Source: Pseudomonadota bacterium
GTDB taxonomy: Bacteria; Myxococcota; JACRCW01; JAFGSX01
DNA: 18,420 nt
NCBI GenBank assembly: GCA_043821645.1
Contig: JBDRCO010000082.1
Span: forward strand, 1 to 18,420
Reading direction: 5' to 3'
Below the pieces are notes generated by a model. That model did not search any database. It was given only the letters and a program-made list of their open reading frames with translations, and had not been told where the DNA came from. This document shows positions 2,480 to 7,811 of the stretch, in pieces (the first letter of the stretch is position 1; each line of letters starts with the position of its first letter). Position numbers and translations under genes: made by a program.

Positions 2480-3038
2480 TTGCCAGCACCACCCAACGCG
2501 CCATGAGGGCTTCTCCTTGGCAGGCTCGATCGCATGCGTATTGTCGTCGAGGCCAGCACCAAGTCGTTTTGGATGGCAAACCAGCTTGAGGCACTGGGGC
2601 ACGAGCCCGTCGTGGTGGGCCCTGGCCGCAAGAAGGCGATCGTCGCCATCGCGCGCAAGCTGGCAAGTGTGCTGTGGTCGATGTGGAAGCGAGAGAAGTC
2701 GTTCGATCCCATTTGTTCGACCTGGCGTGACGACGGAGAAATTTTAACGTCACCGCGGAGCCAAGGTGAAGTTTCGGCGGCCATCCACAGGATTGAGTGC
2801 GGCAGTTTCCATGTGTTCAAACGCCGAGTGGCTAATAGCACCGTTCTTTCGAAAACCAACCTGTGCCCGGGTATCAAGGCCCGACCCAGAGCACATGTCG
2901 ATGGCTGAGGAGACGCTCTCGACGACGACACCGGGGCTGCGCTGAACAAGTTGGAGGTCAGGAAGGGACGGCACGACAGCATTGCGATGGCGCGGGTGAG
3001 GTGAGGCTTTACTTGGCATGGCGGGCCGCTCTATCGAT
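2480..3038 (+). mobile_element. IS110/IS1111-family remnant, copy A: internally deleted transposase plus 3' non-coding end
   Basis: MRIVVEASTKSFWMANQLEALGHEPVVV (DEDD RuvC-like N-domain piece) joined to GRKKAIVAIARKLASVLWSMWK (IS110 C-terminal motif). 2724-3038 is homologous to 6704-7019. Left boundary approximate. Confidence 0.85.
2731..3038 (+). ncRNA. candidate bridge RNA/seekRNA region, copy A
   Basis: Non-coding 3' end of an IS110 transposase; colinear with 6711-7019; 35-nt identical block 2898-2932 = 6880-6914; imperfect stem 2789-2800/2838-2848. Confidence 0.55.
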
Positions 3039-4977: not shown

Positions 4978-5032
4978 CGTGCTCTCCTGCGTCTGTGGAT
5001 GTGATCGTTCTAGTAAAACGTATCTTACCGCA

Positions 5033-5061
5033 TTATCGGTCCGAGATGTGGGTTGTCTTTA
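5033..5061 (-). promoter_or_regulatory. putative sigma28 (FliA/WhiG)-like promoter of the 436-aa gene
   Basis: Minus strand TAAA-N17-ACCGATAA versus consensus TAAA-N15-GCCGATAA, in an AT-rich patch ~55 bp upstream of the ATG. The spacer is 2 nt longer than consensus. Confidence 0.45.
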
Positions 5062-5213
5062 AAAAAATCAACAATTTCATGTGGTAGTTCCTCCTACCTG
5101 CGGTCCGTGCCCGGATCGGGCCAGAAACACACTAAAAATGCGCGACTTCTGGCGTGCCCGGGGTGCACCGAGCCTGCGGCACGGCACCAGAACGGGCGCC
5201 CAAAGAGGTGCAG

Positions 5214-5263
5214 GGAATAGGTGGCCCGTGGAATAGGTGGCCGTGGAATAGGTGGCTGGCACC
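5214..5263 (+). repeat. three direct copies of GGAATAGGTGGC ending in the imperfect palindrome GGTGGCTGGCACC
   Basis: Copies at 5214-5225, 5230-5241 and 5245-5256; palindrome 5251-5263. Confidence 0.85.
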
Positions 5264-5274
5264 GAACCGGGTGG

Positions 5275-5440
5275 CGCTGGTAAACGCACCGAGAAAGTAG
5301 ATGGCCGCGATCACCCGGGTGTCGAGCAGGCCGTGGTGGGCAGCAACCCCGGCACTGAGCAGCAGGGTCTCGCTCTGTATCAAGCTTCCGCCGAGCACAG
5401 CGAGGTAGCCATAGTGCTGGATCAGATCGGCCACGGTCAT
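5275..5440 (-). pseudogene. DedA-family membrane protein, N-terminal fragment
   Basis: MTVADLIQHYGYLAVLGGSLIQSETLLLSAGVAAHHGLL matches the DedA N-terminus (YGYxAV…EGETxLLxAG); GGAGAGG RBS. Similarity is lost after ~55 aa, next to the repeat cluster. Confidence 0.75.
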
Positions 5441-5500
5441 GACCTCTCCCGCGCGAGGATCATGTCACCTGAAACACATCGCCGCATGAGCACGCCAGCT

Positions 5501-5790
5501 GGTGCCATCGATAAACGACGGTGGGCTCGTGCCCCAGCGCTTCGAGCTGGTCCGCCATCCAGAAGGCCTTGGTGCTGGCCTCGACGACGATGCGCATGGC
5601 GCCGAGCTTGCCAAACACCTTCCTCAAAGCCTCTGGCTTGTTGCTGACCTTGCCCTCGCGCTGGACCTCGCGCTTCTCGTCGACGATACAGAAGTGACTC
5701 GACCTCTTGCCCATGTCCAGTCCACAATAGTTCAAGGTCGGCTCCTTTCCGCTGTGCCTCGAGCACGTTGCCCCCGGGAAAGGTGCCACC
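5501..5790 (-). mobile_element. IS110-family remnant, copy C: transposase N-terminus (TTG 5735) fused directly to the right-end sequence
   Basis: AAGGAG RBS, then LNYCGLDMGKRSSHFCIVDEKREVQREGKV…RIVVEASTKAFWMADQLEALGHEPTVV (catalytic D and E of the DEDD domain). It is followed at once by TTTATCGATGGCACC, identical to 7011-7025. Confidence 0.85.
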
Positions 5791-5844
5791 CGATTTTCAA
5801 CCTAGCAAAAACATACACTTACCCGTCCTCTTGCCCCCCATTCC

Positions 5845-5929
5845 CGGAAGAGGTGCCTGGCTCTCGGAAGAGGTGCCTGGCACTTTCCTCCGACTTTCCT
5901 CCGGGTGGTTACAGAGGGCTCTGTCCCCT
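5845..5929 (+). repeat. REP-like cluster: CGGAAGAGGTGCCTGGC x2, ACTTTCCTCCG x2, AGGGCTCTGTCCCCT
   Basis: 17-mers at 5845-5861 and 5865-5881; 11-mers at 5882-5892 and 5893-5903; imperfect palindrome 5915-5929. Confidence 0.8.
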
Positions 5930-5984
5930 GCTCTCTTGTGCAGTTCACTGCCACCACCAGGAGGACGAACGTGTCGGACGCGCG

Positions 5985-6428
5985 TCAGCCACCGGCGCCC
6001 TCAACGTCGTCTGGCGGATTCTTGAAGACACCCCCGTAGGCGTTTTCCCTGTCCACGATCAGCGGACGGCACTCGGTGACCGGCCCCCAGGCCTGCGACT
6101 TGGGGTCGTTCGAGGCCACCATCGGCAGACCTGCCTCCTGCCACCCCTTCACACCTTCCTCGTACACCTGGACATTGGTCATCCGAAGGTCTTGCAGGCG
6201 CACTGCGGCATCGGCTGCCAGGTGACACGCCCCACCGGCCGAGTAAACGACGACCAGCGAGTCCGGCTTCATGACGCTGGCAACCCGAAAGGTCAACGAA
6301 CCGAGAGGCGCGGTCATCGCACCTGGCAGGTGACCTTTCTCGAACTCCATGTCGCCTCGCACGTCAAACAGCGCCACCTTGCCGGTGTGCAGCAGCTCGT
6401 CCAGCCGCTCTGTCGTCATGTTGGTCAC
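5985..6428 (-). CDS. single-domain rhodanese-like protein
   Basis: LFDVRGDMEFEKGHLPGA, VVVYSAGGAC and VQVYEEGVKGWQEAGLP motifs; GAGGAGG RBS before GTG 6428. Confidence 0.9.
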   Translation of the reverse strand: MTNMTTERLDELLHTGKVALFDVRGDMEFEKGHLPGAMTAPLGSLTFRVASVMKPDSLVVVYSAGGACHLAADAAVRLQDLRMTNVQVYEEGVKGWQEAGLPMVASNDPKSQAWGPVTECRPLIVDRENAYGGVFKNPPDDVEGAGG

Positions 6429-6710
6429 GAAATCCTCCTCTGGACTCTGCGCCCTGTTGCCAGTGGATGTAGCTCAGGAGGGACAGGGCGGCAGCCGGCT
6501 GACGATCGAGATCCGGGCGAGGGTCCTCTGTGGGTCTGGGCCCCAGAAAAGGTGCCATCGAAAAAGTGGCTGCGTGACTGGGGTCTGGTGCTGGTCAAGC
6601 GCCTGGGCCGCAACAAGGCCATCGTCGCCATCGCGCGCAAGCTGGCGAGCGTGCTGTGGTCGATGTGGAAGAACGAGCGCGCGTTCGAGCCCATGTACGG
6701 CGTGGCGTGA

Positions 6711-7019
6711 CGACGGAGATTGCAGGTCACCGCGGAGCCCAAGGTGAGCCGTCGGAGGTCATCAAGAGGGTGGTGTGCGGCAGGTGCCATGGCAGGACAA
6801 CCGTGCCGATTGTGTGATGGCACCCACCCTTCGAATACCATCCTGTGCCCGGGCATCCAGGCCCGATAAAGAGCACCTATCGATGGCTGAGGAGACGCTC
6901 TCGACGACGACACCAGGGATCCGCTGAACAGGGAGGAGGTCAGGCAGGGGAGACACAGAACATAGCGATAGCTCGGGCGAGGTCAGGCTGTGCTTGACAT
7001 GGTGGGCCGCTTTATCGAT
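6711..7019 (+). ncRNA. candidate bridge RNA/seekRNA region, copy B
   Basis: 5' hairpin (CGACGG 6711/CCGTCG 6749; TCACC/GGTGA). Stem 6767-6778/6820-6830 encloses an internal loop containing AGGTGCCAT. A second domain has TATCGAT before hairpin GAGGAGACGCTCTC. Both loop motifs match the element junctions. Confidence 0.65.
6994..6999 (+). promoter_or_regulatory. outward-facing -35 hexamer (TTGACA) near the IS110 right end
   Basis: Perfect TTGACA 18 nt before the AT core; copy A has TTGGCA at the same place. IS110/IS1111 elements form junction promoters on circularisation. No convincing -10 identified. Confidence 0.5.
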
Positions 7020-7124
7020 GGCACCCTCTGTGGGCAGCTTTTGGGCTGGAAGTCATCACAGCCTGTCGGGTTTGTTCCCTCACCAGCACCCATAGTACAA
7101 TCAAGAGCCACGCCGGGAGGGTTC

Positions 7125-7811
7125 ATGAGGAAGCACCTGCAGCTCGCCATCCTTGCCTCTGGCCTGGTCTTTTCACTCGCGACAACAGGCCTGCCGGAGC
7201 CCGGAGAAGATGATGCGGGTGGTGGCGCCGATTCCGGCTCCGTGAATCAGGAATGCACCAACCCTGTTCAGGCGCCGACCGGCAGCGCCAGCCTCACCGG
7301 TGCGGACTTCACGCCAGTCGACGCCGTGGCCTTTGTCATGCGCCGACAGGACCTTGCGAGCGAGGCTGGCCAGGTGCCCTACATGACGAATCTGGAGATC
7401 AAGTTGACCGACTATCCCGGGGCCTGCGGTGTTGAAAACGCCGGTCTCAATGTGCGAGGTGCGCAGTGGTTCCGCCTGGCCCTGATCGCACCTTCGGAGT
7501 CAGAGTACCCAGCCCTGCCCATGCCAGGCACCTATGCCTGGAGCGATGCGCTGCCCATGCCCTGGGATACCTACACCTTTCGTGCCGGGTGGAAGATCTG
7601 GGACTGCAACCTCGACTGCGAGCCTTGTGGCCAGCTCGTCGCCGGAACACCCTCGGGGACATTGACCCTGACCGCGGTCAGCGAAAGCGAGGTCTCGGGC
7701 AGTTTCTCCTTTGATAGCGGCGGAGATGGTGTCTATTCGGGCTCCTTCACGGCCCCCATCTGCACTAGTGGCGTGCCCGAGGACGAGCGTTGCTGCTGGA
7801 CGGGTGAATAG
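7125..7811 (+). CDS. secreted Cys-containing hypothetical protein
   Basis: GGAGG RBS before ATG 7125; signal peptide MRKHLQLAILASGLVFSLA; C-terminal beta-rich SGTLTLTAVSESEVSGSFSF…YSGSFTAPIC. Confidence 0.8.
   Translation: MRKHLQLAILASGLVFSLATTGLPEPGEDDAGGGADSGSVNQECTNPVQAPTGSASLTGADFTPVDAVAFVMRRQDLASEAGQVPYMTNLEIKLTDYPGACGVENAGLNVRGAQWFRLALIAPSESEYPALPMPGTYAWSDALPMPWDTYTFRAGWKIWDCNLDCEPCGQLVAGTPSGTLTLTAVSESEVSGSFSFDSGGDGVYSGSFTAPICTSGVPEDERCCWTGE

Follow-up and report, generated by a model that had tools for sequence, protein, structure and literature searches.

A short IS1111-group remnant in a REP-like palindrome is probably a dead, 5′-truncated copy rather than a mobile mini-element

The window analyzed here is an entire contig (C82; 18,420 bp) from the draft genome of an uncultured high-GC bacterium, which totals 7.07 Mb in 140 contigs, and the element in question is a 463-bp insert (positions 6557 to 7019) set between two arms of a palindrome. 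A preliminary description had taken this insert for a derivative of an IS110-family element resembling a miniature inverted-repeat transposable element (MITE), with functional inverted ends and a guide RNA, that had entered the AT centre of a palindrome and could be mobilized, or supply its guide, in trans. The insert is instead probably a dead, 5′-truncated copy of an IS1111-group element situated in a target resembling a repetitive extragenic palindromic (REP) sequence, with an inverted scrap of a right end in place of its own left end. What remains of this copy is its final 46 codons together with the whole RNA region and the right end; its left end is gone, as are the promoter-proximal leader and 291 codons. 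The features of the stretch from 6541 to 7034 are as follows.

6541 to 6556, plus strand: left arm (one half-site of the target), formed by the REP-like host unit CCCCAGAAAAGGTGCC, which is found also beside the left ends in contigs C5, C66 and C67 and, in reverse-complement form, beside the right ends of 10 copies
6557 to 6567, minus strand: stub of 10 to 13 nt mirroring the family right end, ATCGAAAAAG(TGG) versus ATCGATAAAGCGG, and not the left end
6568 to 6710, plus strand: 3′ fragment of the transposase gene, 46 codons (6570 to 6707) plus a stop codon (6708 to 6710), catalytic domain absent
6711 to 7019, plus strand: downstream noncoding region (putative seek/bridge RNA) and right end, alignable end to end with copies in C122, C25, C105, C67 and C54
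7005 to 7014, plus strand: subterminal repeat GGCCGCTTTA within the right end
7020 to 7034, plus strand: right arm, REP-like unit GGCACCCTCTGTGGG, an imperfect reverse complement of the left arm, with which it forms an inverted repeat

Read from 6547 to 7029, the locus consists of the arm AAAAGGTGCC, the sequence ATCGAAAAAGTGG, a reading frame that ends in LRDWGLVLVKRLGRNKAIVAIARKLASVLWSMWKNERAFEPMYGVA and a stop codon, 309 nt of noncoding sequence ending in GGGCCGCTTTATCGAT at 7019, and the arm GGCACCCTCT. The sole coding content of the insert is the C-terminal transposase fragment, whose 46 codons align to residues 292 to 337 of two 337-amino-acid (aa) relatives, P0004 and P0005 (82 to 83% identical); a Pfam search with the 53-aa fragment alone matched no family. 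Much of the preliminary description withstood examination by script and alignment. When 6547 to 6558 (AAAAGGTGCCAT) and 7020 to 7029 are joined at the AT, the central 14-mer is a perfect palindrome, and the 13 nt at 6782 to 6794 do match the joined flanks. The remnant, credited with about 50 transposase codons of an IS110-family element, retains the 46 noted above and belongs to the IS1111 group, and the RNA region is whole, in that its 309 nt align over their full length with other copies. The statement that the insert keeps inverted ends held only in part: an inverted repeat bounds the insert (arms 6542 to 6570 and 7006 to 7034, 29 nt, 83% complementary), but the left terminus is not the left end of the family.

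The left end of the family was located by finding N-terminal transposase fragments with PF01548 and reading the sequence upstream of them. The true left end so found reads TGATGGAGTAAAGCGGCC; the element, which follows the arm (A/C)AGGTGCC, opens with TGATGGAGTAAAGCGGCCGGCTCC, and the start codon lies approximately 100 nt farther on. Searching the genome for the left-end motif with up to 5 mismatches returned seven hits, three of them exact (C5:54729, C66:180 and C67:247), one with 2 mismatches (C67:1502), one degenerate (C84:2306, 5 mismatches), and two that are short left-end-like stubs (in C3 and C112). The four best left ends consist of GGTGCC or GCTGGC followed by TGATG(G/A)AG(T/A)AAAGCGGCC. 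Read evidence came from the Logan contigs of four public sequencing runs (X1, X2 and X3 among them), which drop rare variants, and in X1 a loose end at window position 5771 runs on into the true left-end sequence of other copies. This loose end and the left-end hits together indicate that at the family left junction GGTGCC is followed by TGATGG, not by ATCGAA.

In the flagged copy, the left arm is followed by ATCGAAAAAGTGG, such that the junction reads arm and then ATCGAAAAAGTGGCTGCG. Aligned in exact register with the arm and needing no gaps, positions 6557 to 6569 agree with the inverted right end of four copies at 9 of 10 and at 11 of 13 positions, versus 6 of 20 for the family left end; at a fixed register, an agreement as good as that with the inverted right end has a chance of about 5e-6. 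A search of the genome with the 23-mer from 6547 to 6569 (up to 5 mismatches) produced 11 hits, comprising the flagged site, seven right-end junctions on the other strand and three unrelated sites, and transposase 3′ sequence comes after only the flagged site. The 29 nt of left arm and stub resemble whole right-end junctions elsewhere, such as those in C25 and C71. Homology to full-length copies starts at 6568 to 6576, where the run contigs also contain four loose ends of other copies. These comparisons favour reading the apparent left end as an inverted right-end scrap and not as the left end of the family. Such an origin had been offered as an alternative in the preliminary description (6547 to 6570 as the inverted right end of another copy), and it is the one preferred here on account of the ungapped, in-register match and of the 23-mer hits to right-end junctions. 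A further alternative, that GGTGCCAT belongs to the terminal repeat of the element, is not favoured, because the GGTGCC arm varies and the REP-like unit occurs free of the element.

The left junction of the flagged copy is real: it is crossed with 0 differences by X2 record 10 (6412 to 6581) and X3 record 19 (6393 to 6684), which come from runs of different studies. The 483-nt stretch from 6547 to 7029 has 15 matches across 12 contigs of its own genome, and many of these lie at contig edges, in keeping with a repeat that interrupts short-read assembly. It is nonetheless highly improbable that the structure is an assembly chimera formed through this multicopy repeat, with arms brought together from different sites or with an unreal left junction. 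The draft does contain 140 contigs, many of which end within the repeat, and the run contigs lack the private letters of this copy from 6774 to 6973 (a lack that, like gaps in cover, does not imply absence), with none of those shown spanning 7019/7020. Against a chimera stand the two error-free crossings of the left junction and the divergence of the flagged copy, which differs by 4 to 21% from each other assembled copy and is therefore not a collapsed consensus. A mis-join toward the right arm is unlikely and, lying farther right, could not have made the stub in any case.

The two junctions of the flagged copy differ in polarity, the left one being that of an insertion in minus orientation and the right one that of an insertion in plus orientation. 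A palindromic target could be entered in either orientation, and two copies in opposite orientations may have come to lie head to head in the flagged repeat or in neighbouring repeat units. An illegitimate deletion involving similarity at the level of microhomology would then have extended from approximately 10 nt inside the right end of the inverted copy to codon 291 of the direct copy, removing nearly all of the inverted copy along with the 5′ part of the direct copy, which would have formed the centre of a large inverted repeat. Long inverted repeats in bacteria are prone to deletion and instability. The sequences at the deletion junction (AAAG/CGGC versus GAGTCGGC) are similar only at the level of microhomology. 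Formation from head-to-head copies is, we infer, the most likely history. It is very unlikely that the pairing of a right end with an inverted right end is a general footprint of palindromic targets, whereby both orientations enter one repeat and then recombine or collapse to yield solo guide-RNA modules. Were this the case, such modules would be bounded by two right-end repeats and might still be expressed, or be moved by a transposase that reads the subterminal repeats symmetrically.

The rival accounts concern either the mobility of the insert or the process that made it. That the insert is a MITE-like derivative, with functional inverted ends and a guide RNA, that entered an AT centre and can be mobilized or can supply its guide in trans is unlikely. 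In keeping with it, inverted repeats of 13 nt (29 nt when flanks are included) bound the insert, no part of the RNA region is missing and its guide-like segments are those of the consensus, the joined flanks give a perfect palindrome of 14 bp, and at least one long transposase frame survives elsewhere (259 aa and open to the contig edge, in C122). There is also a precedent in MITEPpu9/ssr9, which is mobilized in trans and has one copy with a 3′ tnp fragment (PMC12288879). Whereas a MITE retains both functional ends of its parent, recurs in the same form at several loci, and is small without a functional transposase gene, only the last of these applies to the flagged insert: its left terminus is an inverted right-end stub, and the deletion form occurs once in the 7.07-Mb assembly. 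The mini-insertion sequences (mini-IS) of ISEc11 that moved, with Tnp and seekRNA provided in trans, carried 50 to 84 bp of true left end and 46 to 71 bp of right end, and both ends were required (50 bp of left end and 46 bp of right end) (PMC11187229). Exact-match searches for the 22-mer of the junction gave 0 hits in metagenome_contigs and 0 in genome_contigs (species representatives). A search of 40 relatives for the 2.1-kb locus found it in 0 of 40 and showed no empty site, with one genome having only a 35-nt right-end-like hit; when the protein downstream was used as an anchor, it had no relative in metagenome_contigs. Neither a skip joint, a back-joint nor a circle joint is present in the contigs of the four runs, which cannot show rare forms. 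Full-length left junctions in which GGTGCC is followed by TGATGG further imply that the target centre of the family is probably not a bare AT, and a simple scan of 6300 to 7200 without a sigma-70-like promoter is weak evidence against the MITE proposal. By the standard of the preliminary description itself (a single copy with no evidence of movement), the MITE proposal fails as far as these data reach. Because the left end is missing, a normal donor junction of right end and left end cannot form, and the remnant is most probably immobile.

Also improbable is a rearrangement made by the recombinase itself, in which the junctions of arm and inverted right end at 5501 to 5515 and 6551 to 6565 would have arisen by RNA-guided recombination, as an inversion or at half-sites, of a palindromic target with a site that contains a right end. 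The former junction lies in a second relic (5496 to 5771). The two are 14/15 identical, 1,050 bp apart and in the same orientation, and each joins a REP arm, a 9- to 10-nt right-end stub and an internal transposase fragment. Bridge recombinases are described as inverting and excising DNA between sites on one molecule (PMC11208160), and half-matching sites are described as able to recombine (preprint 10.64898/2026.08.31.748434). Recombinase crossovers, however, belong at the core beside the flank, and the breakpoints here lie 9 to 13 nt inside the right end, at internal gene sequence; nor do the run contigs, which drop rare variants, show polymorphism. If this account were true, the two relics flanking a rhodanese gene would record a natural genome rearrangement by a bridge recombinase. 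Models linking the 5496-to-5771 relic and the flagged copy by a single inversion were worked through by hand and rejected for requiring implausible ancestors, namely, a back-to-back right-end palindrome within a gene or an arm of the wrong polarity.

Several observations weigh against the reading as a dead, truncated copy with an inverted right-end scrap. The stub is short, and a left-end origin with 3 nt of indels, possible because both ends share the subterminal repeat TAAAGCGGCC, gives 8/11 matches with one gap (by eye), as opposed to 9/11 ungapped after the AT for the inverted right end; such an origin is clearly less parsimonious. No intermediate allele was seen, neither a full inverted copy at the left arm nor an empty site, and the history is inferred only. 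The arms form an imperfect palindrome, as expected of a single target with a single element, and this fits one insertion equally well. The interior from 6700 to 7019 and the right junction are not reproduced by run contigs, and at about 15 positions every run contig carries the letter of the other, more abundant copies, for which reason the continuity of the flagged copy to its right arm comes from the genome assembly alone. The two contig collections searched may omit records of this genome or its near relatives. Finally, recognition of IS1111-type ends is incompletely understood (PMC11187229), although mobilization of an element bounded by a right end and an inverted right end is unlikely.

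The parent of the flagged copy is a multicopy insertion sequence of the IS1111 group (IS110 family), predicted to encode a DEDD/serine recombinase of about 337 aa with a guide (seek/bridge) RNA region 3′ of the gene. A PF02371 match at 3e-22 comes from the C122 fragment, which is the longest assembled frame (259 aa, running off the edge of its contig without a break). Its relatives in the databases have 337 aa, contain both PF01548 and PF02371 and, where named, are called IS110-family transposases; through P0004 and P0005 the family thus shows the DEDD domain (PF01548), the PF02371 domain and the length of about 330 to 350 aa that define such a transposase. IS1111 elements are distinguished from IS110 elements by subterminal inverted repeats, a noncoding region 3′ of the gene, and a transposase of 330 to 350 aa (PMC11187229). 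The noncoding region from stop codon to right end is 309 nt in the window and 316 nt in C122, versus approximately 100 nt from left end to start codon. The subterminal inverted repeats match at 10/10 positions (left, TGATGGAG-TAAAGCGGCC; right, GGCCGCTTTA-TCGAT) and lie 8 and 5 nt from the tips. The genome holds at least 10 right-end and 4 or 5 left-end copies. The right-end junctions (n = 10) align as GGCCGCTTTATCGAT followed by a sequence like G(G/A)CACC(T/C)TT, and the flanks diverge past about 10 to 16 nt. Few other full-length copies came to light: P0004 had one distant hit (30%) in genome_contigs and one hit (39%) among 300 genomes of the phylum, too few for covariation analysis or a target logo outside its own genome. 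Our guess is that this IS1111-type family is undescribed.

Copies of the family sit in a 16-nt REP-like unit, CCCCNGRAAAGGTGCC, and the arms are this unit and its complement. In 10 of 10 cases, the right-end flanks resemble G(G/A)CACCTTTT, a G(G/A)CACC-like motif that exceeds chance but is common to the whole family. The flanks of the three exact left ends are (A/C)AGGTGCC, and that of C67:1502 is CAGCTGGC. Right-flank arms differ among copies (GACACC, GGAACC, GTCAGC and GACAGC), and REP-like units without any element occur singly, in tandem or as short palindromes (window 5772 to 5788 and 5842 to 5881, C77:6270, C105:426/4022, C112:17068 and C12:8680). Because the arms vary between copies and the unit occurs without the element, the arms are assigned to a REP-like host repeat and not to the element. 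Judging from these flanks, the family inserts site specifically into the REP-like palindromic host repeat, and it is because the family targets this palindrome that GGTGCC/GGCACC flanks and matching RNA segments occur together. IS1111 has been described in the REP palindrome of QMITE2 (PMC5896051) and ISPpu9 in REPs (PMC12288879), which are classic targets. The REP-like family is built on CCCCNGGAAAGGTGCC(A/-)CC, with further sites at C112:3054/5518 and C54:3671, and window positions 5772 to 5903 contain tandem 20-nt REP-like units (5842 to 5881) and then two 11-nt repeats (5882 to 5903).

Full-length left junctions suggest a target centre of GGTGCC-TGAT-GGCACC, provided that the core is shared, and the RNA segment TGATGGCACC agrees with it; a bare AT centre is one possibility among several. 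A search of the assembly for unoccupied targets (two arms with a centre of 0 to 8 nt) found none with a TGAT or AT centre. The unoccupied REP-like palindromes in the assembly are few and have 1-nt centres (C12:8680, C112:17068 and window 5870).

The noncoding region contains two segments that resemble target guides and two that resemble donor guides.

6782 to 6794, plus strand: guide-like segment AGGTGCCATGGCA, 13 nt, an exact match to the joined flanks (arm plus centre)
6815 to 6824, plus strand: another guide-like segment, TGATGGCACC, which matches the centre together with the right arm
6864 to 6871, plus strand: donor-like segment CGATAAAG, the complement of the right-end tip, in a loop that varies between copies
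6878 to 6887, plus strand: donor-like segment TATCGATGGC, repeating the right-end junction at 7013 to 7022 (10/10)

The core of the first segment, GTGCCATGGC, is unchanged in 6 of 8 aligned copies and in the C109 fragment, with one change in C105:10465. The second is identical in 5 of 8 aligned copies and exact in the C109 fragment, with one change each in C122 and C105:10465. Both are degenerate in the copy at 2520 to 3038 of the window. The 13-nt match of the putative guide is therefore a property of the family and nothing special to the flagged copy. The guide-like segments of this copy do not depart from the family consensus, so a guide that it provided in trans would contribute nothing new; its RNA, if transcribed at all, would repeat the guide that the other copies have. 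The segments from 6864 to 6887 may serve in donor recognition. A consensus fold has two adjacent stem-loop domains, with one compensatory change (GGCA/UGCC to GGCG/CGCC) in C122; the aligned copies (n = 8) are too alike for a genuine test of covariation, and the loop at 6864 to 6871 showed no clean pattern of covariation with right-end variants across copies. An Rfam scan of 6300 to 7300 (E of ≤1) identified no family, and a simple scan of 6300 to 7200 for sigma-70-like promoters and terminators found none, which is weak evidence in that the promoters of this organism may differ. The seekRNA of IS1111-type elements has short stretches that match both target strands and overlap in the target (PMC11187229). 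The noncoding region fits this published picture of seekRNAs and bridge RNAs and is a putative guide RNA.

At least six other copies are truncated or deleted in different ways (window 2520 to 3038 and 5496 to 5771, C71, C67:1502-1882, C138 and C43) and share no structure. Because the structure of each relic differs, there has been no amplification, and the family appears to be decaying into many differently truncated relics. Besides the flagged copy, two of these relics lie in the window.

5496 to 5771, minus strand: second relic, part of the 5′ leader plus codons 2 to 73, joined directly to 9 nt of right end as a stub (TTTATCGAT) and then to an arm, GGCACC
2520 to 3038, plus strand: third relic (79% identical), codons ~44 to 73 fused to the last ~35 codons, noncoding region and right end, without a left end

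In the second relic the leader starts some 25 nt upstream of the ribosome-binding site; of the left end, the initial ~70 nt are missing, and in place of the left end a REP-like unit abuts the upstream side of the relic. Positions 5505 to 5732 (minus strand) match PF01548 at 1.9e-7, and the stub junction is confirmed by X1 record 1, which covers 5000 to 5696 with 0 differences. The deletion in the third relic apparently ran across the similar stretches PGRTKAI (near residue 75) and LGRKKAI (near residue 303).

Among the relics outside the window, C67:1502-1882 (381 bp) has true left and right ends, about 73 N-terminal codons in degenerate form and, of the right side, only the final 63 nt, without guide loops. 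It lies in a variant palindromic target (AACAGCTGGC and GTCAGCTGTT). As a MITE candidate it surpasses the flagged element, but it too is single copy in the assembly. The left deletion endpoints of the window relics and C67:1502-1882 (n = 3, independent derivatives) fall within about 12 nt of one another, just after the LGHEPxVV codons (residue ~73); a short internal direct repeat accounts for one of the three. The remnants in C71 (of a right end), C138 and C43 measure about 150, 70 and 50 bp, respectively, and the C54 copy is cut about 12 codons before the stop codon, beside a REP unit (by eye). A stub of 17 nt at C3:62377-62420 (TGATGGAGTAAAGCGGC) resembles the left end, but no element comes after it; the stub is flanked by direct repeats (TAGGTGGCTG), with a REP arm following, and may be the footprint of an excision or deletion.

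Between the second relic and the flagged copy lies a gene for a 147-aa rhodanese-domain protein (PF00581, 4.3e-16; 5985 to 6428, minus strand). A 402-aa frame on the plus strand (5502 to 6710), in frame with the transposase fragment, was rejected as a spurious product of high GC content that overlaps the rhodanese gene on the opposite strand; automatic gene calling could misread this frame as a full-length transposase. A 228-aa protein encoded downstream of the flagged element (7125 to 7811, plus strand) has an N terminus resembling a signal peptide (by eye), and it had no Pfam match and no relative in metagenome_contigs.

The closest published counterparts of the parent family are ISEc11, ISPa11 and ISKpn4 (Siddiquee et al. 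2024, PMC11187229), which like it have a DEDD plus PF02371 transposase (~337 aa in the parent), a long noncoding region 3′ of the gene and subterminal inverted repeats. They are likewise site specific, without obvious duplication, and their short RNA segments match either target strand. Unlike them, the flagged copy lacks the left end and 291 codons, its RNA is putative, and its target is palindromic, which makes matches to the top and bottom strands indistinguishable. IS1111 of Coxiella burnetii similarly splits a repeated palindromic host element, the QMITE2 REP palindrome, in two (Wachter et al. 2018, PMC5896051), but the repeat sequence and host are different, and the flagged copy is truncated with an inverted right-end stub. 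MITEPpu9/ssr9 of ISPpu9 is also a small noncoding module, apart from an intact transposase gene, in REP targets, and its ssr9-'tnp copy likewise carries a 3′ transposase fragment (Pares-Guillen et al. 2025, PMC12288879). As reported there, MITEPpu9 has its own A′/B′ end boxes, eight copies and demonstrated transposase-dependent circles, and Ssr9 is stated not to be a guide RNA; the flagged remnant, in contrast, is single copy and has no left-end box, and nothing suggests that it forms circles. The engineered mini-IS of ISEc11 are similarly short, flanked by target and without a transposase gene, but they keep the true left end (PMC11187229), of which the flagged element has 0 nt.

Were the remnant shown to move or to supply guide RNA, it would amount to a MITE of a bridge-recombinase element that naturally carries its guide, and would be of interest for engineering, but nothing found points there. 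What the locus does teach is that a truncated copy can mimic a tidy mini-element in a palindrome, because in this family the guide region is made to match the flanks and one subterminal repeat is common to both ends. The original observation is accurate and its meaning ordinary: what the locus holds is a decayed member of an already known class of element, not a mobile mini-element of a new type.

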